A stretch of 64,000 bases of DNA from the NCBI GenBank assembly GCA_041738395.1, contig JBGSPW010000064.1:1-64000 (forward strand), given 5' to 3'. Below, one piece after another: positions 7,826-54,900 of this stretch. Origin of the DNA: Thermoflexales bacterium. GTDB lineage: Bacteria; Chloroflexota; Anaerolineae; Fen-1058. Below the pieces are notes generated by a model. The model was not told the DNA's origin and did not search any database. It saw only the letters and a program-made list of their open reading frames with translations. Position 1 is the stretch's first letter. Each line of letters starts with the position of its first letter. A program made the position numbers and the translations under genes.

Positions 7826-7942
7826 GCGTCGGGCTGTGTGCTAACCGCCTCAATCCGCCGGTCGTCCGAAGATCGATCTTTGGACGACCGGCATTTTTTA
7901 CCCCAATGTTATAATCGAGACAGTCCCCGCGCGAGATGCCCT

Positions 7943-10231: not shown

Positions 10232-10264
10232 ACTGAATTTGACCTCACACCCAAGGAGAGTCCC

Positions 10265-11260
<996 letters not shown>

Positions 11261-11264
11261 AACA

Positions 11265-13094: not shown

Positions 13095-13798
13095 GCGTAG
13101 ACCGTGGTCAATACGATCAGCGCTTGCCCGGTGATGTATAACACCCACACCACATCGTGCACCAGAAACCAGTCGTTGTCGCGCAATTCGCGGTTGCCGA
13201 GGATGATGTCGGAGATCAGGAAGAGCACGCCGCCGATCGCCGTCAGGGTGAAACGCGGATCGGACAGTGCCAGCGCGGTAGCCGTGCCCGCCATGATCGC
13301 AATCAACCAGCCGTAGAACAATGAGCCGATATTCAAGACGCGCGACTTGGCCGGGTTGTAGATCAGGAAAAACCACAGCAGCGCCGCGACGATCATGAAG
13401 GCCGCCCACAAGATCGATTCCGCCAAGGGATCACTCAAGCCCAACGCGCGCGCCGTTTGCGAGAAGCCGGCGATATAGCAGAGATGGCCGATCGAGAACA
13501 CGATGATGCCGCTGATCATGCGCTTGGGCAGCGGTATCACATCGGCCAGCACCAGATCGCCCAGCGCCCCAAACGTCATCCCCAGCGCGATCAACAACGC
13601 GGGCGTGCGCAGCGTCGAACTCACACTAAGAATGATCCAGGCGCACGCGACTAGAATCCATGAAGTGGACAAGCGCAGTGGCTTGATCGTGCGGCGGGTT
13701 CGCTCGGCGTTAGTGTGGCCGAAGACAAACGCGATGATCAGGATAACGGGAATCGCCGCCAGGCCAAGTACAACGAGTAAGTACGCGGGATTGAGCAC
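13091..13798 (-). CDS. YhhN-family (lysoplasmalogenase-like) integral membrane protein.
   Basis: 235 aa and highly hydrophobic with about 8 TM segments. The call is by similarity of pattern only. Confidence 0.45.
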   Translation of the reverse strand: MLNPAYLLVVLGLAAIPVILIIAFVFGHTNAERTRRTIKPLRLSTSWILVACAWIILSVSSTLRTPALLIALGMTFGALGDLVLADVIPLPKRMISGIIVFSIGHLCYIAGFSQTARALGLSDPLAESILWAAFMIVAALLWFFLIYNPAKSRVLNIGSLFYGWLIAIMAGTATALALSDPRFTLTAIGGVLFLISDIILGNRELRDNDWFLVHDVVWVLYITGQALIVLTTVYA

Positions 13799-38542: not shown

Positions 38543-39157
38543 TTACTCTGCCTGATCGAGCGAATCGATCGGATGGAAGGAATGCTGGCAAGCCTCGCAG
38601 ATGATCGCGCTGTTGTCGAGTACCGCGCGGTTCACCAAAATCACACGGGCGGGCAAACACAGACAGCAGGCCAGCACGCGATCCCCGGCCGCGGCTTCGC
38701 CGAGGTTCTCGATCAGATCGGCGGCCAGAATCAGGCCGACGTTGTGTTCGATCGCGGTTGCCAGCGGCGCGAACAACGCCTGCCAGCGCTGCTTGGTCTC
38801 GGGCGATAAGGTCCAGTAGCCGCGATCGGTCACGGGATCGTGCGCCAGAATCAAGCCGCACGGCTGCGCATAGGTCGGCGAGTAACGCCCCACCGCGTCA
38901 ACCACCTCCAACAGCATATTCGCCACAATCGTTTCCGCGGCGCGATCGGGCGCGTTGAGATCGGCGCCGTCGAACAATGAAAGCAAATCGGGCAAATCAG
39001 GAATGACGTCATACGCGCGGCACATCGCCAACCAGGCGTGCTGCAGCGCATCGAGCAGATCGATCGACGAATCGGCATCCGAGCGCCCGATCGGCAGATC
39101 ATTCTTCCCCGGCCCCGGGCGCGTGGTGGGCGGGCCGAGGGGTTTATGGGTATACAT
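38543..39157 (-). CDS. Hypothetical protein whose start overlaps the last codons of hdrCB by 14 nt.
   Basis: 204 aa with a C-terminal CEACQHSFHP motif. No confident family. Confidence 0.4.
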   Translation of the reverse strand: MYTHKPLGPPTTRPGPGKNDLPIGRSDADSSIDLLDALQHAWLAMCRAYDVIPDLPDLLSLFDGADLNAPDRAAETIVANMLLEVVDAVGRYSPTYAQPCGLILAHDPVTDRGYWTLSPETKQRWQALFAPLATAIEHNVGLILAADLIENLGEAAAGDRVLACCLCLPARVILVNRAVLDNSAIICEACQHSFHPIDSLDQAE

Positions 39158-40601
39158 CGGTTAATCCCCCTCTGTTGAGGGGATGAGCTTCCCCCCCTTG
39201 TGCGACGGAATAGCTTAACCCCTTCGCTTCCAGCATCGGTCGTGGATCAACCAGGTTCTTGTTCAACGCCGCTTTCTCCGGCACACCCAACGCCAGCGCC
39301 ATCAATTGCGTGAAGTACAACACCGGCAGTGGTTCGGCTAATTTCATCTGGAATTGGCGCGCGTCGAGATTCGAATGGCACATGGGGCACGCGACGGCGA
39401 TTGCATCGGCGCCCGCCTCACGCGCATGCTCGATCAGATCGCTGCTCAACTTCAGCACGATGTCCGGTCGCGTGAGTGAATGAGCCGCGCCGCAACACGA
39501 CGTCTTGTATGACCAATCGCGCACCTCGGCGCCCAGCGCCACCATCAACTGATCCATGTCCGTCGGATTTTCAGGATGCGGCGCTTCGGTGACTTGCGGC
39601 GGACGGGTAAGCAAACAGCCGTAGTAACACACCACGCGCAGGCCCGTCAACGGCTGCTTGACCGCCGCCGCGACCTGCTCTACGCCGATATGCCGGGTGA
39701 TCGATTCGATGAGAGTGGTGACCTGCACCGTGTCGCGGTACTCATAGCCGATCGTCTCACTCACCTCAGCGCGCTGTTCGTCGTTGTGCCGGATTTCGAA
39801 CTGCGCGGCTTTGTGGCGATTGAAGCAGGCCGCGCACGGCATCGTCACTTCCTTGAAGCCGCTCTGCTCGATGAGCGCGAGATTTTCGATCGGCAGGCGC
39901 AGGGCCGCCTCGGGATCGGTGCGATGCGCGGCCGAACTGCCGCAGCACACCCAGCCCCTCGGTTCGATCACGTTCAAGCCCAACGCTTCACACACGGCGC
40001 GCGTGGAGATATCAAATTCAGGCGCGGTGGAATGTAGCGAACAACCGGGATAGTAGGCGACGGCCTCCGTCGCACCGGCGACCGGTTTGGCCCGGTGCGG
40101 CATGCGTGTGGGATGCGGCAGCAAAGAGATTTTATGCTTGCGCAGCATCTTCACGCCCAGGTCCATGTCGCCCAAAATGTTGCGCGTGCGGAGCTTCATC
40201 TCGGCCATCAAGCCCAGTTCATACGCGCGGCCCCACAACTGCACCTCGCGCATGAACGCGACATTGAAGGTATTCACCTCGGGCACTTGCGGCTTGATGC
40301 CACGCGCCCTGGCCTCGCGCGTGAGGAACTCCATAATCGCCGTGATGTCCAATCCTTGTGGACAACGTGTCGTACAAGTCTGGCACGACGCGCACAGCCA
40401 CGGCGTCTGGGAATGCAGCGCCACATCTTCCTGCCCCAGTTGCAAGGCGCGCATCACCTGATTCGGCTGCCAATCGAAGAATTCAGACACAGGGCAGCCA
40501 CTGGTGCACTTCACGCACTGATAACACAGAAAGACATTCTGCCCGGTTTCGTCTTGCACACGTCGCGCAAGCTCAGAATTGACTGGCGTTGCTTCGTCCA
40601 T
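39144..40601 (-). CDS. hdrD: HdrC-HdrB fusion (HdrD/GlpC-like) Fe-S protein with two [4Fe-4S] ferredoxin motifs and two CCG domains.
   Basis: CYQCVKCTSGCP and CASCQTCTTRCP motifs. CCG motifs VCCGSSAAH and SCCGAAHSL. AGGAGG RBS before the ATG at 40601. The upstream Met codons are encoded by the repeat element. Confidence 0.8.
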   Translation of the reverse strand: MDEATPVNSELARRVQDETGQNVFLCYQCVKCTSGCPVSEFFDWQPNQVMRALQLGQEDVALHSQTPWLCASCQTCTTRCPQGLDITAIMEFLTREARARGIKPQVPEVNTFNVAFMREVQLWGRAYELGLMAEMKLRTRNILGDMDLGVKMLRKHKISLLPHPTRMPHRAKPVAGATEAVAYYPGCSLHSTAPEFDISTRAVCEALGLNVIEPRGWVCCGSSAAHRTDPEAALRLPIENLALIEQSGFKEVTMPCAACFNRHKAAQFEIRHNDEQRAEVSETIGYEYRDTVQVTTLIESITRHIGVEQVAAAVKQPLTGLRVVCYYGCLLTRPPQVTEAPHPENPTDMDQLMVALGAEVRDWSYKTSCCGAAHSLTRPDIVLKLSSDLIEHAREAGADAIAVACPMCHSNLDARQFQMKLAEPLPVLYFTQLMALALGVPEKAALNKNLVDPRPMLEAKGLSYSVAQGGEAHPLNRGGLTDVYP

Positions 40602-40623
40602 ATGCGCCTCCTGATTCATCAAC

Positions 40624-40766
40624 GTCATTGCGAGCATCTTTTCGCGAAGCAATCTCAGGCTCGATTAGCGGGGATTGCTTCGTCGCATTCTTCGACTTCG
40701 CTGCGCTCCGCTCACGCCGTATCCGCAAAGCGGCGGCGCGCCGGGCGGAACGCTCCTCGCAATGAC
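40624..40766. repeat. GC-rich nested palindromic element (copy 2) between hdrCB and metF.
   Basis: Perfect 11-bp terminal inverted repeats (gtcattgcgag/ctcgcaatgac). Inner inverted repeat gcgaagcaatc/gattgcttcg. Core shared with 9192-9255. Confidence 0.8.
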
Positions 40767-40776: not shown

Positions 40777-41787
40777 CTACACGATCGGTCGGGGCAGCAA
40801 GCCCGCGCCTTCCACGATCGGCTTGACGGCTTCTTCCCACTCGATCGCCATGATGTGCACCCCGGCCACGCCTTCAATCTCGCGCAGCTGTTGGATCAGT
40901 TCGATGCAAATTTTCATGCCTTCGGCCTGCCACGCACCCGATCGGGCTTTCTTGTCTTCCTTGGTCAGCTCGTCTTTCGACTTGTTCGCCCACGGCGCAC
41001 CGGCTTGCGTCATGCGCTCGATGAGTGGATCGGGGATCCGCAGGCCCGGCACGTTGTCTTTCATGTAGCGCGCCATCGTCGGGCTTTTGAGCGGCCCGAC
41101 CCCCGCCAGGAGGTAGACTTTTTCGTGCAGGCCCAGTTCACGCACCTTCGCCATGAAGGTCTTGAAGCCGTCGATGTCGTAGATGAGCTGCGTCTGAATG
41201 AAGCTCGCACCCGCCTGCACTTTCTTGGCGAGCCGATACGGGCGAAAGTCGATCGGGCTGGCGAAGGGCGACTCCGCAGCTCCGACGAAGAAGCGCGGCT
41301 CTTGTCCCTTGATCGCTTCACCGCACTGGAAGGCGTGCTGATCGCGCAGGGCCGTCACCATCTGCACCATCTGGATCGAATCCATGTCGAAGACGTTCTT
41401 CGCATTGGGATGGTTGCCAAAGGTCTGATGATCGCCCGACAGGCACAGCAGGTTGCGCATGCCCAGCGCATACGCGCCCAGTAGATCGCTCTGCATGGCG
41501 AGACGATTGCGATCGCGGCACGTCATCTGGATGATAGGCTCCAATCCTTCCTGCACCACGAGCGTGCCCGCGCCGATGCTGGACATGCGCACGATGGCCG
41601 TCTGGTTGTCAGTGATGTTCACCGCATCGCAGTTGCCTTTGAGCAGTTTTGCTTTCTTCCGAATCACCTCGACATCAGCGTTTTGCGGCGGGCCAAGTTC
41701 ACCCGTGACGGCAAAGTGGCCGTTCTTCAACACCTTCTCCAGATTCGATCCAGACAGATAGCCGTTGCCGTTAGGTTGTGGAGTCAT
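40777..41787 (-). CDS. metF: Methylenetetrahydrofolate reductase MetF.
   Basis: MTPQPNGNGYLS...FAVTGELGPP...SIQMTCRD... matches the MTHFR fold. GGAGGCA RBS 5 nt before the ATG at 41787. Confidence 0.85.
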   Translation of the reverse strand: MTPQPNGNGYLSGSNLEKVLKNGHFAVTGELGPPQNADVEVIRKKAKLLKGNCDAVNITDNQTAIVRMSSIGAGTLVVQEGLEPIIQMTCRDRNRLAMQSDLLGAYALGMRNLLCLSGDHQTFGNHPNAKNVFDMDSIQMVQMVTALRDQHAFQCGEAIKGQEPRFFVGAAESPFASPIDFRPYRLAKKVQAGASFIQTQLIYDIDGFKTFMAKVRELGLHEKVYLLAGVGPLKSPTMARYMKDNVPGLRIPDPLIERMTQAGAPWANKSKDELTKEDKKARSGAWQAEGMKICIELIQQLREIEGVAGVHIMAIEWEEAVKPIVEGAGLLPRPIV

Positions 41788-41799
41788 CGATGCCTCCTG

Positions 41800-41872
41800 A
41801 ATTCGGAATGTGGAATGCGGAATACGGAATGCCCCATTCCGAGTTCCAAATTCTGCATTCCGAATTAATCTA
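41800..41872. repeat. Palindromic element built from GGAATG/CATTCC heptamer-like units in the metV-metF spacer.
   Basis: gaattcggaatgtggaatgcggaatacggaatgccccattccgag...cattccgaatt. Confidence 0.8.
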
Positions 41873-42556
41873 TCATTCTTCTTCCGCTGCCAGTCGCAGA
41901 TCAGGCCGAACAATTTTACGCGGGCCGCCGTCACGTGACGTGCGCCAATTCTTGGGCGGCTGGATCTCCAACAGCCGATCAAGCTTGCCCATGTGATCCA
42001 GCCGATCGTAGATGAGCTGCCACGCGCAGGGAATCTCGTCGTTGATCTCGCAGTGCCCGTCTTCCGATCCGCCGCACGGGCCATTGAGCAGCGACTTCGA
42101 GCAGCGCGCGATCGGACAGATGCCGCCCGTCAAACCGAGGATGCAATCGCCGCAGGCCGCGCAGCGCTCCGTCCACACGCCCTGCTCCACCGGCAGGCCG
42201 AGGAACTTGGTGTTGAGGCCGGGCACGATCCAGGCATCGGGAAAATGCTCGGCCAGCGCCTGCACGCCGATGCCGCAGCCCAGCGACAGCACCACGTCGA
42301 CGACGCCCACTTGCTCGGCAATCTCGTCGAGGTATTCCCATTCGCACTGGCGCTGTACGGTCACATCGGTCACGTCCTTGGCGCCGCCGTCGAGTTTGGT
42401 CGCCATGCGCAATGACGCCGCGACAATCGCGGCTTCGCGCGCGCCGCCCGCAAAGCAGACAGTCACACAGGTGCCACAGCCCGCGACCAGCACCTTCTGC
42501 GCGTCGCCGATCAACGTCTTGATTTCTGCTAAGGGTTTCTGTTCGGCTACGATCAT
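41873..42556 (-). CDS. metV: MetV-like protein (MTHFR C-terminal-domain, Cys-rich zinc-binding), the small subunit partner of MetF.
   Basis: Cys clusters CGTCVTVC, CAACGDCILGLTGGICPIARCSKSLLNGPCGG and CEINDEIPC. GGAGAG RBS before the ATG at 42556. Confidence 0.7.
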   Translation of the reverse strand: MIVAEQKPLAEIKTLIGDAQKVLVAGCGTCVTVCFAGGAREAAIVAASLRMATKLDGGAKDVTDVTVQRQCEWEYLDEIAEQVGVVDVVLSLGCGIGVQALAEHFPDAWIVPGLNTKFLGLPVEQGVWTERCAACGDCILGLTGGICPIARCSKSLLNGPCGGSEDGHCEINDEIPCAWQLIYDRLDHMGKLDRLLEIQPPKNWRTSRDGGPRKIVRPDLRLAAEEE

Positions 42557-42630
42557 GGCTCTCTCCATTTCTGAATGTTGATTGCGGATTTCTGATTGCC
42601 GATTGGTCTTCAATCAACAATCAGCATTCA

Positions 42631-43065
42631 TCAATCAGCAATTCGCAGAGGATTTGCTCCCAACGCCTCAATCTTTTCTGTCATTTCCGTTGTCGCCGTC
42701 ACAAACTGATTGGCCATCGCCGACGACAGATTGAACATAGCGACTCGCTCCGGTTCAAGTCCAATCTGCCTGAGCAAGTCCTTCACGTACGCCACTCGGC
42801 GTTTGGCGTTAGCATTACCTTCCAGGTAATGACAGTCGCCGGGCAGTCAACCCGCCACCATGATGCCGTCCGCGCCGTCTTCTATCGCACGGAGTACGGT
42901 CAGCACATCCATCCGGCCTGTGCACGGTATCTGCACGATCTTGATCGCGGGCGGGTATTGCATCCGCAACCCGCCGGCTAGATCGGCGGCCGCGTAGGCG
43001 CAGTGCTCGCAGCAATAGGCGATGATGTTGAGTTGGTTAGCACGTACAGATGCAACGTCGTTCAT
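42631..43065 (-). CDS. mvhD: MvhD-family [2Fe-2S] protein with an in-frame TGA (42847-42849) at the conserved Cys position. Putative selenoprotein.
   Basis: ...PCTGRMDVLTVLRAIEDGADGIMVAG-[TGA]-LPGDCHYLEGNANAKRR... aligns with MvhD consensus GADGVLVAGChxGDCHY. A hairpin (cattaccttccaggtaatg) lies 15 nt downstream of the TGA, at plus 42814-42832. The open frame continues to a TGA stop at 42631. Confidence 0.7.
42814..42832 (-). promoter_or_regulatory. Putative bacterial SECIS hairpin downstream of the mvhD copy-1 UGA.
   Basis: Perfect 7-bp stem CAUUACC/GGUAAUG with a 5-nt loop, starting 15 nt 3' of the UGA. Confidence 0.55.
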
Positions 43066-43155
43066 CTACTTCACCACAGTCATTGCGTTCGCGATGTCTT
43101 CGGCGATCATCTTGTTAAGCTTCTCGTTACTTTGCCAGAACAGTTTCTCCTGAGA

Positions 43156-43932
43156 TCATCTTGAATTGAACAAAGCCATTTCGATATCACATGGCCGAAA
43201 CTTGGACTCGATATTCTCCCCAGCAGCATCAACGTCATTGAAAGTAAGACGCGCGTTGTTTAGCGCTGCTGCCTCTGCCTGCAAAAAGGGAACATATTCC
43301 GTGTAGTACTTATTGATGTTCACGCTTAGATCGCTGATATAGCCATCTTCCGTTCGGAGACTGAGCGTAGTAATACCATTTTTCTGTGTGAAATCATTGA
43401 CGACGTGCTTATCCATGATGCCATAATCATTCGGATACAAGAAACGAAGAAATGCTGTTGCAGTAGGGATTCTCACACCACCAATCCGGAACTTTTTTAG
43501 ACTTGACTCTCTGTATGCGTCAAGCAATTGCACATGTGCATCTTGTGCCCATTTTGCGCGCACATTCTCGACACTGCGTGATGTTCTGGATTTCTGCGAG
43601 GCCATTTTCCAATGCACAATTGCGCAGGTCACGCTCTTTAGGTTGCCAAGACGATCGCCTGTCCATTGACCACTCTCGTTAGCGCGACTACAGTCTTCAA
43701 AGACTGATCGGCTTATTACTTCAAACTTCCGCAAATTGACCCCACGCGGATAGCTCTGAGGAATGGCGGCCGGAAATATACCCGCGAATGTCCCAACATA
43801 CGGCAAGTCGTCAGTTTGAATGACTGTAAATTGCACTTCGCAGTCTCGGTAGTTATAGGCTTGTCTTTGCGCGACGTAACTGTTCAGAGGGATAAGGGTC
43901 ATAGGTATACTCCATCTACATACCCAAGCCAA
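43156..43932 (-). CDS. Hypothetical protein encoded by an AT-rich (about 45% GC) insert between hdrL1 and mvhD. Possible defense or restriction-related protein.
   Basis: GC content drops sharply relative to the 62% flanks. 258 aa with no confident family. The only motif noted is YPNDYGIMDKHVV. Confidence 0.45.
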   Translation of the reverse strand: MAWVCRWSIPMTLIPLNSYVAQRQAYNYRDCEVQFTVIQTDDLPYVGTFAGIFPAAIPQSYPRGVNLRKFEVISRSVFEDCSRANESGQWTGDRLGNLKSVTCAIVHWKMASQKSRTSRSVENVRAKWAQDAHVQLLDAYRESSLKKFRIGGVRIPTATAFLRFLYPNDYGIMDKHVVNDFTQKNGITTLSLRTEDGYISDLSVNINKYYTEYVPFLQAEAAALNNARLTFNDVDAAGENIESKFRPCDIEMALFNSR

Positions 43933-43936
43933 TCTC

Positions 43937-46900
43937 TTATCTGGTAGCTACAGTTTCTTTCACGGGCATGAATCGGCCCGATGGCTCCAACAACGCCTGC
44001 ACCTTCATCACCATCTGCGCATCCGTGTAGTGCATCAACTGAATCGCTTGCGCGGGACATTCGGCCACGCACGAGCCGCAACCCTGGCAGATCGCCGCTT
44101 CGATGTAGGCCGCACCCATAATGCTGCCCACGCCCGTCAAGTTCGCTTTGATCTTCGGCACGCCGAACGGGCAGATGCGCACGCACGTCAAGCAGCCGGT
44201 GCACTTCGCGTCATCCACTACTGCGACACGCCCACCCGCGACTAAAGACTCACGACTCAACACGCGCGCGGCGCGTGCGGCGGCGGCCTGCGCTTGAATC
44301 ATCGTCTCATCCAGCAGCTTCGGATAATGCGCCATACCCGCCATGAACACGCCATCGGATGCAAAATCGACCGGGCGCAGTTTGACGTGCGCTTCGAGGA
44401 AGAAGCCGTCGGCGTCGAGCGCGACTTTGAACAATTTCGCCACCTCGTGCGCATCGTCGCGTGGCACGACGGGCATGGACAGGACGACGAGATCGGGCTG
44501 CAGGGTGATGGTGCGCTGCAAGATGGAATCCCATGCTTGAACGACGATTGGGGAACTCGGAATTTGGAATTCGGAATTCGGATTGTTGATAATCACTTCC
44601 GGTTTATGATTGTCATCGTAGTGGACAAACAACACGCCACGTTCACGCGCGGTGGTATATATCCGTTCTTTGAAGCCATACGTCTGAATGTCTTTGTAGA
44701 GAATGACCACCTGCGCTGCGGGATTGAGTTCTTTGAATTGGATCGCGTTCTTGAGTGCGACGGTGCAGCAAATGCGGCTGCAGTATTTTTCCGCCGGGCC
44801 GACGCATTGGATCATGACGACTGAATGCGGAATGCGGAATGCGGAATGCGGAATGGAAAGCAACGACTCGAATTGCTGTTGAGTGATGATGTTCGGATGA
44901 GTGCCGAATCCATAATCCGGGCCGCGATATTCCTGTGCGCCTGTTGCTAGAATCGTGACGCCGTGCTGTATTTCTTGCATCTTGCATCCTACATCTTGCA
45001 TCTTGCATCCTGCATCTTGCTTCCCGCCTCTTGCATCCTGCGAAGCGTCCCCGTGGGATTGTATCTTGCTGATAAAATTGCCCATGAAGCCCGTCGTCGC
45101 TGCGACCTGGCTGTCGAGATAAACCGTGATGGAAGAGTTGTGCTCAACTTGATCAATCAGTTGCTTCAAGACGATTTGCGGATCTTGGGTCCCCTCTTCC
45201 ATCCCCCTCGCACGCGGGAGGGAAACCAGGACCCGCCGCAGATTGCCGCCGAGTTCATGCGCCTGCTCGACGAGATGAACGGGGAAGCCTTGATCGGCCA
45301 GCGACACAGCCGCGGTCATGCCGGCCGCGCCCCCGCCGACGATCAGGGCAGCGCGCTTCACCGGCACATCGATCAGGTGCTGCGGTTCAAGCAGCGCTGC
45401 GCGCGCCACCGCCATACGCACCAGGTCTTCAGCCTTCGCAGTGGCAACGTCCCAATCATGCGAATGAACCCACGAGCACTGATTGCGGATGTTCGCCATC
45501 TCGAACAGATAGGGATTCAAGCCGGCGTTGCGCAGGCAATCCTGAAACAGCGGCTGATGCGTCAAGGGAGTGCAGCTGGCCACCACCACGCGATTGAGAT
45601 GCTGCTCTTTGATCTGTTCGACGATGTGCTTGATGCTGTCTTGCGAGCACGCATACAAATTTGACTCGGCGTGAACCACGCCCGGCAGCGTCTTCGCATG
45701 GGCGGCAACCTGGGGCACATCGAGGAAGCCTGCGATATTCGAGCCGCAGTGGCACACAAACACGCCGATGCGCGGCTCTTCTTCGCGCACATCTCGCTCC
45801 GCTGGAAATTCCGGGCGCGTGGTCAACGCGAAGCGCGCCGTGCCGAGGCGTGTGGCAGCGGCGGCGGCGGCTCCGCTCGCTTCCACGACCGATTCAGGAA
45901 TATCCTTCGGTTCGCGGAACGGCCCGACGGCGTAGATGCCCGGTCGGCTAGTTTCCAACGGATTGAACTGCACCGTGTGACAGAAACCATATTCGTCGAG
46001 TTCGATCCCCAGGCGTTTGCCCAACGCGCGCACTGATTCGGAAATCTTCATACCGACGGATAACACGACCAGATCAAATTGTTCTTCGACAAGATCGAGT
46101 CCGGCGTCATTGCGAGGAGCGCTTCCTGAGCGGAGCAGAGCGTAGTCGAAGGACAGCGACGAAGCAATCTCCGGCTGTTCGGGACTGAGATTGCTTCGCA
46201 TCCTTCGACTACGCGGCGAACAGATGCCGCTCCACTCAGGACGCTCGCAATGACGGGCATCGGACTGATACCGAACGATCAGATTGTGAGTCTGTGGATT
46301 TTCATGCAGCTCGCTGATGCGACAGCGCGTGTAGTGAATACCGTACCGATCGCGCGCCCGTTCGAAGTAAGACCAGTAGCCCTTGCTGAACGCGCGCATG
46401 TCCATCATGAAGACCTGCACGTCCAGATCAGGTTGATGCTCTTTGGCGATCACTGCTTCTTTGGTCGCATACATGCAGCACACCGCCGAGCAGTAATCGT
46501 GCGTTTGATCGCGCGAGCCGACACATTGCAGGAAGGCAATCCGCTTTGGCGCTGCGCCATCCGATGGACGCCGTACCTGTCCCAGCGTCGGACCGGACGC
46601 CGACAACAACCGCTCGAATTGCAGCGCCGTGACCACGTTCGGATAACGACCGAAGCCATATTCGCGCGACAATGCCGCTTGATACACCTGATAGCCTGGA
46701 GCAAGGATGACAGCGCCGACGTCGATCTTTTCCTCGCGCGCGACCATGTTGTGATCGATCGCATCAACGCCGCAGGCATACACACACGCCAGGCACTCTG
46801 AGCAGATACCGCACTGCAGGCAGCGCTGCGCTTCGGCGCGGGCCTGCTGCTCGGTCAGCCCCAGCACCACCTCGCGGAAGCTGGTCACGCGTTCGGCCAT

Positions 46901-48724
46901 CGGTAGTAAGGCCGGTTGCGCCTTCGGCTGCAAGCGAATCTCTCCGCGCTGCACACGCTGCGTGATCTCTTCGCGCGTGAACTTCGCCACGGGCAGCGCC
47001 GGACGCGCCGGTTGATCGAGCGCCTCATGCTGCAAGTAACGCTGAATCGAAACCGCCACGCGATGCCCCAGCGCCACCGCCTCGATAATGTAGCTGGCTC
47101 CGGTCTTGCGGCCACCAACCACGAAGAGGCCGGGAATCTTGCTAGCCAAGGTCTTGTGATCGACGGCGAGATCGTCGAAGGCCGGATCGAGGAAGTTCAA
47201 ATCCGAGAATTGCCCCACCGTGACGATCACCGTATCCAGTTCCAGCGTGAACTCGGTGCCGGCCTCGATGGTCGGCCGGCGGCGGCCATGCGCATCCGTC
47301 GTCAGGCCACTGCCCGTCTGCGCCAGTTCCACGCCGGCCACCTTTCCGTTCTTCGCTAGAATGCGCGTGACCGTCGTATGTTCATGCAAATGAATGCCCT
47401 CGCTCTCGATGGCCGCCATCTCCCATTCATACGCCGGGATTTCGCCGCGGGGCCGATCGAGCACCAGGTAGACTTCAGCCGCGCCCAAACGTCGCGCGAC
47501 AGCTGCCGCATCCAACGCCGTGATGCCGCCGCCGATCACCGTTACGCGATTACCGATCACGATCGGTTCGCCGAGATTGATCTTGCGCAGGAAGGTGGCG
47601 GCCGAAATCACACCTGCGGCGTCTTCACCCTCAAGCCCGATCGCTGGATCACGCGACGAGATCCCCGTCGCCAGGCAGACGGCGTTGTAGCCCTGCTTCA
47701 ACAGTTGCGCCGGGTCCTTGATCGGCGAGTTGGTCTTGAGCACCACACCCAACGCCAGGATGTCGTCGATGTCCTGCTGCAGCACGCCCTTGGGCAGGCG
47801 ATGCGCGGGAATGCCGACCCGCATCATGCCACCGGCCACCGGCAGCGCTTCGTAGACGGTGACGCCGTAACCTTGCTTTACCAGATCATGCGCCGCCGTC
47901 AGACCGGCCGGGCCGGCCCCGATCACGGCCACCCATTCGGGACGCGTACGCGCGATCGGGGTGACCGGTTCACGCCCATAGGCCAGCGCATAATCCATCA
48001 CGAAGCGCTTGAGCGACATGATGCCTACCGCTTCATCGGCCAAGGCGCGCGTGCAATGTCCCTCGCAGGGATGATGACATGTGCGGCCACACACGCTGGG
48101 GAATGGATTGTCTTCTTTGATCGTGCGGAAGGCCTCGCGATAACGGCCCTGTGCGATCAACGCGATGTAACCTTGCGCGCGCTGTCCAGCCGGACAAGCA
48201 TCACGACACGGCGCGACACCGCGTTTCTCAATCGCATAAGCCGACGGCACCGCCTGAGCATACAGCCGATAAGCTGCCCGGCGATCCTTCAGCCCTTCTT
48301 CGTAGAGATCGGGCAACACGATCGGGCAAACCTTGGCGCAATCGCCGCAGCCTACACATTTGGTCACATCGATGTAACGCGGCCTGCGGCGCACGGATAC
48401 CGTGAAGTTTCCGGCCTGCCCTTCGACGCCCAGCACGTCGGTATCGGTGAGAATGTCGATGTTGAGATGACGTCCGGTTTCGACCAGGCGCGGGCTGATA
48501 TTGCACATCGCGCAATCGTTGGTGGGGAACGTCTTGTCCAACTGTGCCATGTGCCCGCCGATGGCCGACTTCTCTTCGACGAGATAGACCTTGAAGCCCT
48601 GATCGGCGAGATCGAGCGAAGCCTGCATGCCGGCAATCCCACCGCCGACGACCATCACCGCGCCGACTGGTGTCGATTGGCTTCGAGGTATTTGATTCAC
48701 GTCGATTGGACTTGTGATGTCCAT
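43937..48724 (-). CDS. hdrL: HdrL-type giant flavoprotein (1595 aa). It comprises an HdrA-like N-terminal FAD/Fe-S module, a GltD-like NAD(P)H-binding domain, a full HdrA core, a second FAD-binding module and a C-terminal di-cluster ferredoxin.
   Basis: VVGGGIAGMQASLDLA...TFPTNDCAMC. CVGCGDCAKVCP. GltD-like CPAGQRAQGYIAL...AVIGAGPAGLTAAHDL. CLQCGICSECLACVYAC...FLQCVGSRD...CSAVCCMYATKEA. C-terminal CTGCLTCVRICP...CQGCGSCVAECP. Confidence 0.8.
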   Translation of the reverse strand: MDITSPIDVNQIPRSQSTPVGAVMVVGGGIAGMQASLDLADQGFKVYLVEEKSAIGGHMAQLDKTFPTNDCAMCNISPRLVETGRHLNIDILTDTDVLGVEGQAGNFTVSVRRRPRYIDVTKCVGCGDCAKVCPIVLPDLYEEGLKDRRAAYRLYAQAVPSAYAIEKRGVAPCRDACPAGQRAQGYIALIAQGRYREAFRTIKEDNPFPSVCGRTCHHPCEGHCTRALADEAVGIMSLKRFVMDYALAYGREPVTPIARTRPEWVAVIGAGPAGLTAAHDLVKQGYGVTVYEALPVAGGMMRVGIPAHRLPKGVLQQDIDDILALGVVLKTNSPIKDPAQLLKQGYNAVCLATGISSRDPAIGLEGEDAAGVISAATFLRKINLGEPIVIGNRVTVIGGGITALDAAAVARRLGAAEVYLVLDRPRGEIPAYEWEMAAIESEGIHLHEHTTVTRILAKNGKVAGVELAQTGSGLTTDAHGRRRPTIEAGTEFTLELDTVIVTVGQFSDLNFLDPAFDDLAVDHKTLASKIPGLFVVGGRKTGASYIIEAVALGHRVAVSIQRYLQHEALDQPARPALPVAKFTREEITQRVQRGEIRLQPKAQPALLPMAERVTSFREVVLGLTEQQARAEAQRCLQCGICSECLACVYACGVDAIDHNMVAREEKIDVGAVILAPGYQVYQAALSREYGFGRYPNVVTALQFERLLSASGPTLGQVRRPSDGAAPKRIAFLQCVGSRDQTHDYCSAVCCMYATKEAVIAKEHQPDLDVQVFMMDMRAFSKGYWSYFERARDRYGIHYTRCRISELHENPQTHNLIVRYQSDARHCERPEWSGICSPRSRRMRSNLSPEQPEIASSLSFDYALLRSGSAPRNDAGLDLVEEQFDLVVLSVGMKISESVRALGKRLGIELDEYGFCHTVQFNPLETSRPGIYAVGPFREPKDIPESVVEASGAAAAAATRLGTARFALTTRPEFPAERDVREEEPRIGVFVCHCGSNIAGFLDVPQVAAHAKTLPGVVHAESNLYACSQDSIKHIVEQIKEQHLNRVVVASCTPLTHQPLFQDCLRNAGLNPYLFEMANIRNQCSWVHSHDWDVATAKAEDLVRMAVARAALLEPQHLIDVPVKRAALIVGGGAAGMTAAVSLADQGFPVHLVEQAHELGGNLRRVLVSLPRARGMEEGTQDPQIVLKQLIDQVEHNSSITVYLDSQVAATTGFMGNFISKIQSHGDASQDARGGKQDAGCKMQDVGCKMQEIQHGVTILATGAQEYRGPDYGFGTHPNIITQQQFESLLSIPHSAFRIPHSVVMIQCVGPAEKYCSRICCTVALKNAIQFKELNPAAQVVILYKDIQTYGFKERIYTTARERGVLFVHYDDNHKPEVIINNPNSEFQIPSSPIVVQAWDSILQRTITLQPDLVVLSMPVVPRDDAHEVAKLFKVALDADGFFLEAHVKLRPVDFASDGVFMAGMAHYPKLLDETMIQAQAAAARAARVLSRESLVAGGRVAVVDDAKCTGCLTCVRICPFGVPKIKANLTGVGSIMGAAYIEAAICQGCGSCVAECPAQAIQLMHYTDAQMVMKVQALLEPSGRFMPVKETVATR
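44976..45040. repeat. About nine copies of the CATCYTG heptanucleotide tandem repeat inside hdrL1 coding sequence. Three units (21 nt) encode one heptapeptide unit (KQDAGCKMQDVGCKMQ).
   Basis: Plus strand catcttgcatcctacatcttgcatcttgcatcctgcatcttgcttcccgcctcttgcatcctg. Further CGGAATG/GGAATTC tracts lie at 44563-44588 and 44824-44856. Confidence 0.9.
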
Positions 48725-48786
48725 GTTACTTCTTCGCTTCGTGCACCGACATTCATTTATGAATTGTTAGGTGCATTGACAACGAT

Positions 48787-49683
48787 TTAACTGCACCGAT
48801 CAGCACGAAAAGATAACGGTGATAGGTTAAACGTATCGACAAAGTCATCCGTAGTGTACTGAGTAAGTAACGGATGCTGAGAGATAGCTGATCTAACCAC
48901 GCAGAGAACAAAGTGCTGGTCAATCTGCGCTTGTTTCACTTCACGTGCAGTAATAATGAATGACTCTATGTCGCCTCTGACGCCTTTGACCTCGACATGC
49001 TTGAATTCAGATCCCTTTTCACAAAGAAGATCAAACCCGCGTTTATCAACTTCTACTGATTGCACTTTCCAGCCGTGTGACTCATAATGCTTCTTGACAA
49101 TAGTGATTGCCGCTTGTTCAACTCTCCGATTGCTCTCTGGTGAGCCAAATCCAGCTCCGACCTTGGTTGCCTGCCCGTTATTCTCGACAAGGTCTACTTT
49201 TGCCTGAATAGGCATGCTTTTAGCTGGCAATGGACGATCCAAAAAATGCGCCCAGTCTCGTTCAAGCTGCTCAGCAATATCTTCTGGAATAGTCCTACCA
49301 GATGCCCGTGGCTCCCAATTCATCCTTGAGTAGATGCCGCTGTTTAGCCGTTCTCTTGGAAATATTCCTTTGTGAGGGTCAAGAATGGTATCAAAGTCCA
49401 CATCTATGTATAAAGCGGATTTACCCTTCTTGCGCGCTGCCGGATTCCAATGCGGTCCCGGACTGACTTTTTCGCTTGTCACTACCCCGGAGGCCATAAT
49501 ACCGCGAGGAGGCTCTTTACCTAGCTTGATGAGAAACACGCGATCGCCTTGAACAATCTTCTTCGTCACACCGCAACTCCAAGAGTCGGAAAGATAGCCA
49601 TATTTTTCAATCTCCTGAATATCTTTCTGAAGACGCTTCCACGGCGTTAGTACTTTATTCCATGTCAGTAGGTAAGTCGCCAT
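48787..49683 (-). CDS. PUA/EVE-like N-terminal domain fused to a DUF3883 (NOV_C, restriction-endonuclease-like) domain. Candidate modification-dependent restriction or defense protein. The gene is AT-rich (about 45% GC).
   Basis: N-terminus LTWNKVLTPW...IVQGDRVFLIKLGKEPPRGIMASGVVTSE is EVE/PUA-like. C-terminus ...KRGFDLLCEKGSEFKHVEVKGVRGD...FIITAREVKQA matches the DUF3883 GyDi...iEVK...E pattern. Confidence 0.5.
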   Translation of the reverse strand: MATYLLTWNKVLTPWKRLQKDIQEIEKYGYLSDSWSCGVTKKIVQGDRVFLIKLGKEPPRGIMASGVVTSEKVSPGPHWNPAARKKGKSALYIDVDFDTILDPHKGIFPRERLNSGIYSRMNWEPRASGRTIPEDIAEQLERDWAHFLDRPLPAKSMPIQAKVDLVENNGQATKVGAGFGSPESNRRVEQAAITIVKKHYESHGWKVQSVEVDKRGFDLLCEKGSEFKHVEVKGVRGDIESFIITAREVKQAQIDQHFVLCVVRSAISQHPLLTQYTTDDFVDTFNLSPLSFRADRCS

Positions 49684-49909
49684 ATCTTTGCTCCACTTTG
49701 AGGTATTACGCCCGACTACTTCTTCACTTACGCCTCATCCATCGCCATCCATTCGCGCCGCCATCAATGTGTCATGCTGAGCGCATTTTGCGAAGCATCT
49801 CTCTCACGGCAGGCCACGTTTGCCAGTCAGAGGTAGAGATTCCTCGCTTCGCTCGGAATGACACACCACATGACGTTTATTCCGCACTCCGCACTCCCCA
49901 TTCCGCATT

Positions 49910-51103
49910 CTACGAATCCGTTGCCATCCATTCGCGCCGCCGCATTTCCGGTGTCTGCAAATTGCGCGGAATGATGACCGTGAAGCGTGTGCCTGAACCA
50001 CTTTCATCCGTCGTCACCTTGACGACAATCTGCCCGCTATGCGCATCCATGATTTTTTTGGCGATGGATAAGCCGAGGCCGGTGCCCGGTGTCTCGCCGA
50101 CATTGTCGGCGCGGAAGAAATCTTCAAAGATGTGCGGCAGATCATCGGACGGGATACCGGGGCCTTCGTCGTCGACCTCGAAGGTCAATGAGTCCGGTTC
50201 GTACCGCGCGCGAAAGGTCACCGTACTATCGGGCGGCGCGAACTTGATGGCGTTGTTCAGCAGATTGGTCAAGACCTGCCGCATCCTCCGGCGCGCCCCC
50301 ACGATCGGCTCAAACTTGGGCGGCGGCTCCACCTTGATCCGCACGCCTTTTTCGGCCGCGGCCAAGCGCACATCTTCCAAGGATTCGGTGCCCGCCTCGC
50401 CGGGATCGAACCATTCGAAATCGGCCTGAATCTGCTCCGGGCGCATCCGCGCCAGATCGACCACGTCGCCAATCAGGCCACGCAATTCGACCACGCGCAG
50501 AATGCTGCGCCGCACCATGCGCTGCTGCTTTTCATTCAACTCGCCCGCATAACCGCCGAGGATGGTCTGCAAGTAATTCTCAACGGCGGCCAACGGCCCG
50601 CGCAGTTCGTGCGAGACGATGGACAGAAAATACGTGAGCGTGTCGGTGGCATGCCGATACCGATCGCTGATCAGCGCGGCCTGCCGGTACATCACTTTGA
50701 AGCCCGCTTCGGGATGCGCCCACAGATAAGCGCGCAGCGGCGCACCATCGACCGCGATCACGCGCGCCGGTTCGAGGCACACCGCCGAAGTCGTGTAGGT
50801 ATACGGCGGGGTCAGCGTCGAGAAGCCCGCCATCTCGCCCGGCTCGACGTAGGCGATCGTCGCGTTGCGCGCCGTCGAATGCCGCCCAATCTGGATTTTC
50901 TTTTCCAGCGCCAGTTTGCCCCGTTCGACGATATACATGATCTCGGCCGGTTCGCCTTCCAGCAGCACGGTATCGCCGTCGCGATAAGTCTCTTCGCGGC
51001 AAAACTCCGCAATGGCCGCCAGATCCGTCTCGGAGAGTTCACCGAAAATCTCCGAGCGGCGCAGCCGTTCAGCGGCAATCGACAACGGTGTGACCTTAAG
51101 CAT
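49910..51103 (-). CDS. Sensor histidine kinase with an N-terminal cNMP-binding domain.
   Basis: cNMP-binding-like stretch (IFGELSETDLAAIAEFCREETYRDGDTVLLEGEPAEIMYIVERGKLAL). HisKA H-box (SIVSHELRGPLAA). HATPase motifs (NLLNNAIKF, GTGLGLSIAKKI). Confidence 0.85.
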   Translation of the reverse strand: MLKVTPLSIAAERLRRSEIFGELSETDLAAIAEFCREETYRDGDTVLLEGEPAEIMYIVERGKLALEKKIQIGRHSTARNATIAYVEPGEMAGFSTLTPPYTYTTSAVCLEPARVIAVDGAPLRAYLWAHPEAGFKVMYRQAALISDRYRHATDTLTYFLSIVSHELRGPLAAVENYLQTILGGYAGELNEKQQRMVRRSILRVVELRGLIGDVVDLARMRPEQIQADFEWFDPGEAGTESLEDVRLAAAEKGVRIKVEPPPKFEPIVGARRRMRQVLTNLLNNAIKFAPPDSTVTFRARYEPDSLTFEVDDEGPGIPSDDLPHIFEDFFRADNVGETPGTGLGLSIAKKIMDAHSGQIVVKVTTDESGSGTRFTVIIPRNLQTPEMRRREWMATDS

Positions 51104-51491
51104 GCACGCTCAACAATCTCTCGACGCGACGGAGCAAATCATCCGGTCGGGCCGGTTTCTGGACGTAGTCCTGCACATCCATCGCCATGCCGGTTTCCAA
51201 TTCGTAGCGCCGGCGGCTGGCATCTTCGACGACGGTCGTGAGCACCAGGATCGGCACGGTGGCATAGCGCGGCTCGCTGCGCATCTCGCGGATCACGCCC
51301 CAGCCATCCATACGCGGCATCAACAAATCCAGGATTAAGAGATCCGGCACTTCTTTGGCAACGAGCGCCATGCACTTCTTGCCATCGGGGGCGGTGGCCA
51401 GCCGATAGGGCTGCGATTCCAGGATAGTCGTGATGCCTTCGAGAATGTCGGGGTCATCGTCGACGATCAGAATATACGGTTGATGTTCCAT
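51096..51491 (-). CDS. Single-domain response regulator (REC).
   Basis: ILIVDDDPDILEGI...DLLILDLLMPRMDGWGV. GGAAGG RBS before the ATG at 51491. Confidence 0.85.
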   Translation of the reverse strand: MEHQPYILIVDDDPDILEGITTILESQPYRLATAPDGKKCMALVAKEVPDLLILDLLMPRMDGWGVIREMRSEPRYATVPILVLTTVVEDASRRRYELETGMAMDVQDYVQKPARPDDLLRRVERLLSVHA

Positions 51492-51542
51492 GACTACCCT
51501 TCCTATTCCTGCGCGTACCGTCATTGCGCCGAAGCCATAACG

Positions 51543-51986
51543 TTACTCACTTGCCTTTTCCTGCGCGCCGTTGAGCCTGAGCGGATTGGGACCCAGGCGT
51601 TCAATCTCCGCGGTCAACTCGGCGGCCGACCACGCGAACTGGCCGCCCATCGCCGATGACAGATTGATCATCTGCGCGCGGCGGCCTTCCAGACCGATCT
51701 CTTCCAGCAGCTTTTGCGCGTATTCAATTCGCCGGCGGGCGTTGAGATTACCTTCCAGGTAATGGCAGTCGCCTTCCAGTCAACCCGCCACCAGCACGCC
51801 ATCGGCGCCATCCTCAAAAGCGCGCAGCACATAGAGCACGTCGAGCTTGCCGGTGCACGGCAATTCGATCACCTTAATCGAGGTGGGATACTCCAGTCGC
51901 AGCGCACCGGCCAGATCGGCCGCGGCATACGCGCAGTAACGGCAGCAGAACGCGACAATTTCGGGATTGAAGTGGTCGGACGTCAT
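51543..51986 (-). CDS. mvhD: MvhD-family protein, second copy, with an in-frame TGA (51780-51782) at the conserved Cys position. Putative selenoprotein. Its ATG overlaps the hdrL2 stop codon (ATGA).
   Basis: ...ELPCTGKLDVLYVLRAFEDGADGVLVAG-[TGA]-LEGDCHYLEGNLNARRR... A hairpin (attaccttccaggtaat) lies at plus 51747-51763. Confidence 0.7.
51747..51763 (-). promoter_or_regulatory. Putative SECIS hairpin downstream of the mvhD copy-2 UGA.
   Basis: Same AUUACC-UGGAA-GGUAAU hairpin as in copy 1. It is conserved despite divergence in the flanking codons. Confidence 0.55.
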
Positions 51987-54900
51987 CGTGATACCTCGAT
52001 CTGTTCAATCGGAATGAAGCTGCTCACGTGAGAGGTTTCGTTAAACAACGCATCAATCTTGATCATCGTTTGCGCATCGGTGTAGTGCATCAATTGGATC
52101 GCGTGGGCCGGACATTCGGATGCGCACGAGCCGCAGCCCTGACAAATGGCCGGCTCGATATACGCCGCCCCGATAATACCCCCCGCCCCTGTAAAGTTAC
52201 TTTGCACCTTCGGCACGTCGTAAGGGCAGATGCGCACGCAAGTGAGGCAGCCCGTGCACTTGAGCGGATCGACCACCGCCACGCGCGCATTGCTCAACAT
52301 CGACTCTTGCGACAAGAGGCGCGCGGCGCGTGAAGCCGCGGCTTGCGCCTGCGCGATCGTCTCATCCAGAAATTTCGGATAGTGCGCCATGCCAGCCATG
52401 AATACACCATCGGCCGCAAAATCGATCGGGCGCAGTTTGACGTGCACTTCCAGGAAGAACCCGTCCATGTCCATGGACACTTTGAGCAACGTGCCCAGAC
52501 TACGTGCTCCCGGTGATGGGACGATGGGCGTGCTCAGTACGAGCAGATCGGGATGCAGTTCCAGATCGCGGTTAAGGACCGGTTCGTGAACCCGAATGAT
52601 GATTTTGGAATTCGGAATTCGGAATTCGGATTCCCGATCACTGATCACCGATCCCTGATCTCTGATCTCCACCTCCGGCTTGTGATCGAAATCGAAATGG
52701 ATGAAGCGCACGCCAGCTCGTCGCGCTTCCGTGTACAGCCGTTCCTTGAAGCCATACGTGCGGATGTCGCGATAGATGATCGTGACGTCGGCCGCCGGAT
52801 TCAGCTCTTTGATCTTGAGCGCATTCTTAAGTGCCGTGGTGCAGCACAGGCGGCTGCAGAATTTCTCGGCCGGGCCAACACACTGGATCATGACGATTGA
52901 TTTTTGATTTTGGATTTCTGATTTTGGATTGGCCAGAAACGACTCGAACTCCAACTGGGTCATGATGCCCGGATGCTGACCGTATTTGTATTCTTTGCCT
53001 TTATATTCAACACCGCCCGTAGCGACGATCGTTACGCCGTGGCCTACTTCCTGTATCCTGCCTCCTGCATCCCGCAACTTGCTGGTGAAGTTGCCCTTAA
53101 AGCCACCCAGGCCGATCAGTTCCGTGTTCAGATGCACATCGATCAGCGGATGCTGCTCGACCTTCGTTACGATCTTTTCCAGATAGTTCTGTGGCGTCAG
53201 TGCGGTCCCGTCTCCGTGCAGCGGCACAAAATAGCGCAGCTGGCGCAGATTGCCCCCCAGCGCCTCGGCACGTTCGATCAGATGGACGGGGAAGCCCTGA
53301 TCGGCCAGGGTGAGCGCCGCCGTCATGCCGGCCGCCCCTCCACCGATGATCAACGCCGCCTTGTTGATCGGCACCAGCGAGGTCTTCAACGGTTCGAGCC
53401 GCAGCGCGCGCGCCGCGGCCATGCGCACCAACGCTTCAGCCTTCACCGTTGCGCCGTCTCGATCGCCCGCGTGAACCCACGAACATTGATTGCGGATGTT
53501 TGCCATCTCGAACAAATAAGGATTGAGACCGGCCTGGCGAATGGCATCCTGAAAGAGCGGTTCATGCGTAAGTGGCGTGCACGACGCCACCACTACCCGA
53601 TTGAGCCCCAGCACCTTCACTTGATCGATGATGTGGGCGATCGTATCTTGTGAGCACGTGTATAAGTTGTCTTCCGCATGGACCACGCCGGGCAGCGATC
53701 GCGCATACTCGGCCACCGCGGGCACATCCAGATAGCCGCCGATGTTAGTGCCACAGTGACAGACGAACACGCCAACGCGCGACGTTTCATTAGCCACATC
53801 TCGTTCCGCCGGATACTCTTGAACGCGCGTCAGCGTATGCCGGGCCGGATACAGGATCTGCGCCGCCGCGGCAGCCGCGCCACTCGCTTCGATCACGGAT
53901 TCTGGAATATCCTTCGGTTCGCGGAATGGCCCGGCCACGTAGATGCCCGCGCGGCTGGTCTGCAACGGATCGAACAACGTGGTGTGGCAGAAGCCGTAGG
54001 AATCGAGCTCGATCCCCAGGTTGCGTCCCAGCCGCTTGACGGATTCGGATATCTCCATGCCCACCGACAGCACTACCAGATCGAACTCTTCCTCGATTAG
54101 CTGACTCGATCCTTCATACGGCGCGGCATAACGCACGCGAAGATTCCGCGTGACTGGATCTTCTTTCACATCGCTGAGACGACAGCGAGTGTACTTCACG
54201 CCGTACTTCTTCTCGGCGCGCTGATAGTATTCTTCATAGCCCTTGCTGAAAGCGCGCGTATCCATGAAGAAGACCTGGCACGTGACCTGACCTGCGCCGC
54301 TGCCAGAACGGTCCTCGGCCAACGCATGCTCCATCGTCATGATCGCTTCCTTGGCCGCGTACATGCAGCACACCGACGAGCAATAATCATGGCTTTGATC
54401 GCGGCTGCCCACACATTGCAAGAAGGCAATGCGCTTTGGCTTGGCGCCATCGGCGGGACGCTGGACGTGACCGAAGGTTGGGCCGCTGGCCGATAACATC
54501 CGTTCATATTGCAGCGCAGTCACCACATTGGGATAACGGCCCAATCCATACTCTTCCGACAGATGTGCTTGGTAGACTTCGTAACCCGGCGCGAGGATGA
54601 CGGCCCCGACGTTGATCTTTTCTTCGCGCGCGACCATGTTGTGATCGATCGCATTCGTACCGCAGGCGAACGTGCAGCTCATGCACTCCGAGCAAATCCC
54701 GCAGGCCAGGCAACGCGCGGCTTCTCTTTGCGCCGATTGATCATCGTAGCCCCCTTCGACCTCTACGAAGTTGTCGATGCGCTGCTCGACCGGCAGTTCG
54801 GGCAGCGGCACTCGCGTCTGACGTTTGATCTCGCCCCGCGCGATACGGGCTTCGATCTCTGCGTGTGTCAGCTTCACCACCGGTAATTCGGGATGATGCA

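Follow-up and report, generated by a model that had tools for sequence, protein, structure and literature searches.

The window analyzed here is a 64-kb stretch of a metagenome contig from an Anaerolineae bacterium (Chloroflexota); matching DNA is also present in the Logan run SRR28170473. All the genes considered below lie on its minus strand, where an hdr operon runs in the order hdrL2, mvhD2, response regulator, histidine kinase, A, hdrL1, B, mvhD, metV-like, MTHFR and hdrB/C-like (Table 1). Our subject is the pair of genes here named A and B, of which the first is placed between the histidine kinase gene and hdrL1, and the second between hdrL1 and mvhD. An earlier reading of the bare sequence (hereafter the original prediction) had correctly located both open reading frames (ORFs) on the minus strand and in the junctions on either side of hdrL1. 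Mechanical ORF calling begins gene B at a TTG at 43932, and the alignment of homologs, together with a GGAG sequence 8 nucleotides (nt) upstream, places the true start at the ATG at 43902, giving a product of 248 amino acids (aa). The ATG of gene A is similarly preceded by GGAG, in this case 9 nt upstream.

Table 1. Coordinates of the operon genes, and of the domains and repeats under discussion, in the window
Feature	Position	Strand	Basis	Remark
hdrL2	51983-56674	-
mvhD2	about 51540-51986	-
Response regulator gene	51096-51524	-		overlaps histidine kinase gene
Cyclic nucleotide monophosphate (cNMP)-binding histidine kinase	49910-51103	-	Pfam	upstream of A
26-nt direct repeat, copy 1	49916-49941	-	repeat search	true kinase 3' end (..RRREWMATDS*)
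26-nt direct repeat, copy 2	49737-49762	-		relic kinase 3' end (..RREWMAMDEA*), 179 nt downstream of copy 1
Spacer, kinase stop to A	49684-49909	-		226 bp; contains second, decayed copy of kinase 3' end
Gene A	48787-49683	-	ORF	298 aa; EVE-like sensor and NOV_C/DUF3883 PD-(D/E)xK nuclease
EVE (PUA-superfamily) modified-base reader domain of A	49234-49683	-		aa 1-150; invariant residues include Y4, W8, W35, D47, R48, W123, W144
NOV_C/DUF3883 PD-(D/E)xK domain of A	48814-49146	-		aa 180-290; motif GFD(217)L ... E(230)-V-K(232)-G
hdrL1	43937-48724	-	Pfam	1595 aa; intact, insertion on each side
Gene B	43156-43902	-		248 aa; orphan family, HhH-GPD/OGG-like DNA-glycosylase fold
Helix-hairpin-helix (HhH) motif of B with Asp164	43411-43482	-		GVRIPTATAFLRFL, aa 141-155; Asp164 codon 43411-43413
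mvhD	42631-43065	-		downstream of B; intact if the in-frame TGA at 42847-42849 is selenocysteine
metV-like	41873-42613	-
MTHFR	40777-42084	-
hdrB/C-like	39144-40652	-

Two genes of foreign composition in tight operon junctions

The G+C content (GC) of gene A and of gene B is 0.466, against 0.53-0.62 for the 18 other genes of the window and a window mean of 0.584, and nowhere else in the entire 64 kb does the GC fall below 0.50. The difference is sharper at third codon positions (GC3), where gene A stands at 0.441 and gene B at 0.48 against 0.65-0.77 in the 18 other genes; in gene-sized sliding windows the two deviate by z = -3.8 and -3.6, respectively. The low values of about 45% on which the original prediction had relied are thus real, while its figure of about 62% for the flanks was slightly high. 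Gene B differs from its host here by about -0.12, and because the GC of its family as a whole follows that of the respective hosts this difference points to a recent arrival in this lineage.

The operon was compared with 64 related Anaerolineae hdr loci, which were searched with A, B and the flanking proteins, using tblastn for A and B. Neither gene was matched in any of these loci. Where a locus retains the hdrL-mvhD-metV module, the gap between kinase and hdrL measures 32-313 bp, versus 1186 bp in the window, and that between hdrL and mvhD ranges from -3 to 243 bp, versus 872 bp. Across the relatives, the kinase-hdrL junction spans 0-313 bp and contains no gene. In one relative (L060, 89% identity) the hdrL1 ATG comes directly after the kinase stop, and in another (L004) hdrL1 ends and mvhD begins within an overlapping ATGA. 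An ATGA overlap also joins the paralogous hdrL2 and mvhD2 genes of the window (51983-51986), as the original prediction had pointed out. The hdrL1 protein is 87% identical to the L004 ortholog over aa 16-1595, and is 87% identical to the ortholog of the metagenome-assembled genome "Anaerolineae bacterium fen_1063". As A and B are absent from relatives in which these junctions are tight, both genes are additions to an ancestral tight junction. They are foreign insertions into an otherwise tightly packed operon, and the proposal that the operon had been interrupted in this manner is borne out by the absence of both genes from the related loci.

The junction upstream of gene A retains a possible trace of such an event. 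The two copies of the 26-nt direct repeat at the kinase end are 92% identical, and they enclose a 153-nt imperfectly palindromic segment (49763-49915) containing GTCATTCCGAGCGAAGCGAGGAATC. Judging from these repeats, the duplicated kinase 3' end appears to be a scar left when a rearrangement brought in gene A. We also considered whether the 153-nt segment represents a repeated mobile element (a miniature inverted-repeat transposable element), an idea which is unsupported: the 23-mer core of the segment has a single copy in the window, and the folding of the segment is unremarkable (z = -1.7); elsewhere among the fetched loci the core was found only in L001, which is the same sequence. A search for target-site duplications in the flanks of gene B recovered only short imperfect repeats (an 18-nt repeat and AGATGA motifs), which are indistinguishable from chance.

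A 1,396-bp contig (JGI 3300075153) encodes a protein, P0002, with 84% identity to gene A. The N-terminal read-through in its annotation agrees with the translated window DNA directly upstream of A, and 62 bp past its stop the following gene of the contig begins, the same distance as that of hdrL1 from A. From these matches a related population very probably carries A at the same locus, which implies that the insertion of A is not unique to this genome. The original prediction had named conservation of both genes at these operon positions as the result that would speak against foreign origin: such conservation is absent clade-wide, this single A homolog apparently lying at the same locus.

Domain architecture and affinities of the two proteins

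The C-terminal region of gene A matches the NOV_C/DUF3883 model of Pfam (aa 188-269, E 1.2e-11), and its D217...E230-x-K232 motif is conserved among homologs. An AlphaFold2 model (predicted local distance difference test, pLDDT, 87.7) shows two domains separated by a disordered linker (aa 159-178); structural matches of the C-terminal domain include Hjc (9.8) and I-Ssp6803I (9.7), and Foldseek agrees. In gene A itself the N-terminal domain gave no EVE or PUA match, falling below the Pfam threshold; a PDB profile search with this domain found nothing, and neither did a single-sequence PDB search with A. Its assignment as an EVE domain is supported by structure, and the Pfam EVE model matches a 65%-identical homolog (E 4e-4).

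This sensor domain proved to be modular. At 50-65% identity it is fused to HNH in dozens of proteins of about 270 aa, which the sources name 5-methylcytosine-specific restriction protein A (McrA-like), and it further occurs inside an AAA ATPase on Sinorhizobium plasmids, with a restriction endonuclease gene coming next, an arrangement reminiscent of McrBC. The sharing of the sensor with McrA-like HNH and McrB-like proteins argues for modification-dependent rather than sequence-specific recognition. Homologs of gene A are solitary amid housekeeping genes at three loci (L140, L141 and L144), while two others lie in islands, one with SauUSI-like, SLFN, NERD and MazG genes (L142) and one with Mrr and an integrase (L145). 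No methyltransferase adjoins gene A among its neighbors in the window, or its homologs in L140-L145.

Fusions of PUA to HNH, and of PUA to DUF3427 and DUF3883 as in YenY4I, are modification-dependent endonucleases (Lutz et al. 2019, PMC6765204), and VcaM4I/TspA15I together with YenY4I constitute the closest known class for gene A (PMC6765204; Pastor et al. 2021, PMC7897488). YenY4I has the same DUF3883 catalytic domain as gene A, which differs in that its EVE domain is joined directly to DUF3883 without DUF3427 and in being 298 aa long, versus about 600 aa. Gene A displays the features by which PUA/EVE-nuclease type IV enzymes were judged, namely an EVE fold with a conserved aromatic pocket, an intact nuclease motif, a modular sensor and no adjacent methyltransferase. 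Based on these sequence and fold features we predict that gene A encodes a stand-alone type IV modification-dependent restriction endonuclease, which would extend the EVE-nuclease class to a minimal EVE-DUF3883 fusion. The type IV architecture of an EVE/PUA reader joined to a DUF3883 nuclease, already recognized in the original prediction, is upheld by the Pfam NOV_C match, the structure, the EVE match of the homolog and the domain swaps. As a first guess by analogy, its substrate may be a modified cytosine, e.g. 5-methylcytosine (5mC) or 5-hydroxymethylcytosine (5hmC).

For gene B, which the original prediction had left without a recognizable family, sequence searches told the same story: nothing significant was found in Pfam, NCBIfam, PHROGs or PADLOC, and PDB sequence searches with the single sequence and with the family profile returned nothing. 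Structure and profile comparison, in contrast, do place it. A confident structure model has an HhH-GPD/OGG-like fold with two alpha-helical lobes and the HhH motif, and comparisons with Ogg yielded weak, directionally consistent matches. The B-family profile, run against 1.84 billion representatives, recovered 94 clusters (50% identity), of which about 13 are full length, and it found four remote relatives (P0280, P0281, P0282 and P0289; E 1e-12 to 1e-16) which pass PF21790; the remote relatives at large pass either this Pfam model ("putative OGG-like") or PF22175. When the B family was aligned with its PF21790-type relatives by hhalign the probability was 99.8% (E 2.7e-29). Gene B itself gives no match at the PF21790 gathering threshold, and just one of 37 family members gives a weak one (E 0.068). 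An additional N-terminal beta-hairpin insertion in gene B (aa ~20-55) is missing in the PF21790-type relatives. The family retains about 50% identity across Acidobacteriota, Bacteroidota, Firmicutes and others.

Thirty residues are invariant in the B family, among them W98, K99, D164 and D239. The signature GVRIPTATAFLRFL-(x8)-IMD resembles the HhH-plus-Asp pattern: Asp164, 18 residues after position 146, does not vary among 37 family members or 9 remote relatives, while position 146, where the HhH Lys would stand, is a nearly invariant Pro. By sequence pattern rather than superposition, we take Pro146 and D164 to be the equivalents of K120 and D138 in EndoIII and of K249 and D268 in hOGG1. 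The catalytic Lys that defines the bifunctional subclass is thus not found in B, and its replacement by Pro146 implies that B is either monofunctional or inactive.

Gene B consists of the OGG-like fold alone, lacks a fused nuclease domain and has no nuclease gene as a conserved neighbor. Among 342 neighboring ORFs from 74 loci of the family no recurrent neighbor family was found. The contexts of the homologs are mixed, comprising an island with DndB, integrase and SLFN genes, neighborhoods with BrxL or AbiEii, and plain housekeeping surroundings.

The combination of a stand-alone protein and an HhH fold is reminiscent of a recently reported group of defense proteins. In a preprint, 19 stand-alone HhH-fold proteins of 17 families (Dag1-17) are shown to be antiviral glycosylases acting against 7-deazaguanine phages; they are AT-rich and mobile, and sequence searches do not detect them (Getz et al. 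2025, bioRxiv 10.1101/2025.10.29.685425). Gene B shares several traits with Dag1-Dag17: it stands alone, at about 230-250 aa, it adopts an HhH-superfamily fold, and its sequence has no detectable similarity to repair glycosylases. Its AT content exceeds that of its host here, its occurrence is scattered over phyla, and the same mechanism, by which a modified base of phage DNA is flipped and excised, is predicted for it. Its context is therefore Dag-like, in so far as a stand-alone HhH protein that is AT-rich or mobile defines such a context. It differs in that it does not lie in an integron, and in having Pro at the HhH Lys position, where Dag1 is bifunctional with a Lys-Asp pair (10.1101/2025.10.29.685425). 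Neither the motifs of B nor the accessions of its homologs had a match in the part of the preprint's supplementary tables available, which holds no sequences.

A second point of comparison is provided by the END nucleases, in which a PLD nuclease is combined with an inactivated EndoIII/OGG-like domain; PF21790 is their sensor of hypermodified bases, and that sensor has been reported to be devoid of the EndoIII catalytic residues (Yee et al. 2025, PMC12191111). By the same hhalign comparison B is homologous to PF21790 proteins including P0280, a 375-aa fusion of PLDc_2 and PF21790 with the END-nuclease architecture, from which B differs in having no nuclease domain. The Ogg2/AGOG glycosylases (Tm1821, 3n0u; Pa-AGOG, 1xqp) are more remote, at 12-15% identity to B, which lacks their catalytic Lys; the NCBIfam Ogg2 model scores B at 12.5 bits against a cut-off of 183, and the distribution of B is sporadic rather than core. 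The absence of a recognizable family thus holds for Pfam, PADLOC and PDB sequence searches, and no longer for structure and profiles, which assign an HhH-GPD/OGG-like fold and homology to PF21790.

Probable independent acquisition and the weighing of rival explanations

Taking these observations together, we propose that A and B are unrelated single-gene cassettes of lower GC, a type IV EVE nuclease and an OGG-like glycosylase, which would have been inserted independently, co-oriented with the operon and without disrupting the flanking genes. We regard this account as rather likely; catalysis, substrates, antiphage role and co-transcription are the parts of it that we infer. In gene A the EVE domain would flip a modified base into its aromatic pocket, whereupon the NOV_C PD-(D/E)xK domain would cut the DNA; the analogy with VcaM4I and THYN1 makes a modified cytosine, e.g. 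5mC or 5hmC, the likeliest base. Gene B may flip a non-canonical base of invading DNA into the HhH pocket and excise it as a monofunctional glycosylase, so that abasic sites would block phage replication as with the Dag glycosylases; less likely, it would only bind modified bases. For B, catalysis is the simplest way to act, as the protein has neither an effector domain nor a conserved neighbor. That it is specifically a Dag-like monofunctional glycosylase is a proposal whose chances we judge to be evenly balanced. More generally, we predict that gene B is a new member, from an uncharacterized family, of a known kind of single-gene defense against modified DNA.

Several observations weigh against this account. 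The tblastn search of INPHARED phages gave no match for A, and B had none in phages (IMG/VR patterns and INPHARED tblastn) or on plasmids, so that for neither family do these collections furnish direct evidence of mobility. The B family is not generally foreign, as its homologs differ from their hosts by a mean of just -0.013 in GC. The A homolog of 84% identity, apparently at the same locus, indicates that the insertion of A has persisted through some divergence. In PADLOC, gene A has only a weak match, of its C-terminal NOV_C-type region to HmaA. B lacks the bifunctional HhH Lys, and its Asp164 is also conserved in P0280, which is built like the END nucleases, enzymes in which the sensor domain is described as catalytically inactive; the Asp may hence be structural, and B possibly a non-catalytic binder or an ordinary repair enzyme. 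The functions suggested for both proteins are predictions drawn from fold and sequence. Finally, the shared GC of the two genes and the prediction that both read abnormal bases leave room for a joint acquisition.

The last point bears on the split defense pair that the original prediction had envisaged, in which A and B would form a coupled system, acquired together and regulated with the operon, B for example marking or excising bases at sites where A then cleaves. To the identical GC one may add the similarly low GC3, sensor domains that would both read flipped non-canonical bases, and the fact that the two genes have the same orientation, flank the same gene and are not set apart from the operon genes by any promoter or terminator signal exceeding chance. 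Nevertheless, in none of 74 B-family loci does an A-like EVE or NOV_C domain lie closer than 6 kb, and no homolog of B is present in six A-family loci. The neighbors of B include no recurrent family and A homologs occur alone, so that neither has a conserved partner; moreover, a housekeeping gene of 4.8 kb separates the two here, and for the EVE-nuclease fusions and Dag glycosylases already described a single gene suffices (PMC6765204; 10.1101/2025.10.29.685425). A coupled system is on these grounds very unlikely. Two independent insertions, which the original prediction had offered as its alternative, are the better reading, since A and B do not co-occur and relatives carry unrelated cargo at the same junctions. 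A purely selfish nature of A and B, as homing-endonuclease-like genes that spread by cutting empty operon junctions, is the least probable of the readings weighed here: the sensor of A is common to McrA-like HNH and McrB-like proteins, B has no nuclease domain, and the homologs of both lie at unrelated loci with no recurring target site.

For gene B, two other roles appear unlikely to a similar degree. It might be an ordinary base-excision-repair glycosylase of the Ogg2/AGOG type, acting on oxidized or alkylated bases and laterally transferred, in which case only A would serve defense. Such a role sits poorly with a family that is very rare (the 94 clusters noted above), scattered over phyla at about 50% identity and absent from some 60 close relatives of this genome. 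Moreover, B is without the catalytic Lys found in Ogg2/AGOG, by sequence it is closest to PF21790 proteins, the PLD-nuclease fusion of END type among them, and some of its homologs lie in defense or mobile islands. These same relatives make a non-catalytic sensor or blocker conceivable, which would occlude phage DNA or recruit a host nuclease in trans. By homology B belongs with the PF21790 group, in which the PLD-fused members are built like END nucleases, and its Pro at the HhH Lys position may be set beside the reported loss of EndoIII catalytic residues from the END sensor (PMC12191111). A stand-alone protein without effector or conserved neighbor, however, has no evident route to act unless it is catalytic. 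Asp164 is invariant at the canonical spacing, as are W98/K99 and D239, and the Dag enzymes of the same fold are active glycosylases (10.1101/2025.10.29.685425).

Both kinds of defense gene are otherwise known; what is unusual is their position in a core energy-conservation operon and the uncharacterized family of B. If our proposal of two independent defense cassettes is right, their presence inside such an operon would mean that defense genes can lie outside defense islands, where island-based discovery would miss them, and the cargo may perturb or borrow the regulation of the operon. The use of HhH/OGG-like folds against modified phage DNA has emerged only in 2024-2026 (Brig, Dag and END), and gene B offers a concrete, testable candidate for a new stand-alone OGG-like/HhH branch of it. 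For Anaerolineae genomics the practical consequence is that annotations of hdr operons may contain unrelated cargo genes; in other respects this is ordinary horizontal acquisition.

Other cargo and further features of the operon

Related loci carry cargo of other kinds at junctions of the same operon. Genes for the four-helix-bundle family 23S_rRNA_IVP (PF05635), with a GC of 0.42-0.46 against 0.58 in the flanks, lie between mvhD and metV at two loci (L007, ~10960-11320; L044, ~13200-13600). Genes for a GNAT acetyltransferase of ~190-200 aa, with host-like GC, occupy this junction at three others (L008, ~7850-8440; L040, ~11500-12130; L052, ~9960-10580); absent from the window, this gene may belong to the operon as an accessory in some lineages. 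At a further locus (L009, 10674-12929) a secreted protein of 751 aa with at least four PPC (pre-peptidase C-terminal) repeats takes up the 2.3 kb that separate hdrL from mvhD, the junction that holds gene B in the window. The unrelated cargo of these relatives indicates that the junctions tolerate, and perhaps attract, insertions.

A scan for promoters and terminators belonging to either cassette yielded nothing above shuffled expectation, and a search of 42000-52200 against Rfam gave no match with E up to 1, whether to attC-like, selenocysteine insertion sequence (SECIS) or other RNA families. It is plausible that A and B are co-transcribed with the operon. A far-reaching extension of these observations, which we consider quite unlikely, is that the stop/start junctions of hdrL-mvhD-metVF are recurrent landing pads for promoterless single-gene cassettes. 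An undescribed mechanism would duplicate the 3' end of the upstream gene, antiphage genes would be placed under the cNMP-sensing two-component system of the operon, and B would found a new stand-alone branch of OGG-like antiviral glycosylases. Were this true, defense against phages with modified DNA would be expressed alongside energy metabolism.

Both mvhD paralogs of the window have an in-frame TGA (minus strand, 42847-42849 and 51780-51782) at the expected Cys of the AG-C-x-x-GDCHY motif, which accordingly reads MVAG-U-LPGDCHY in one and VAG-U-LEGDCHY in the other. At this position in the related Anaerolineae loci (L004-L067) the codon is TGA in 78 of 81 occurrences of the motif and TGT in the other three. 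Since TGA so regularly takes the place of the Cys codon, MvhD is probably a selenoprotein clade-wide, as far as can be judged from these codons; for mvhD, Rfam gave no SECIS-type match.

The hdrL1 gene contains short tandem DNA repeats (44823-44854 and 44973-45041), which consist of GAATGCG heptamers and of a unit of ~14-21 nt encoding ..DAGCKMQDVGCKMQE.. and which fall in a stretch of locally low GC (about 0.51). Just past the kinase stop lies a run (49879-49910) to which the GAATGCG run is 91% complementary. The hdrL ortholog of L009 has another peptide repeat (GSGIGDR) at the equivalent place, which suggests that the hdrL linker is a hotspot of simple-repeat expansion.

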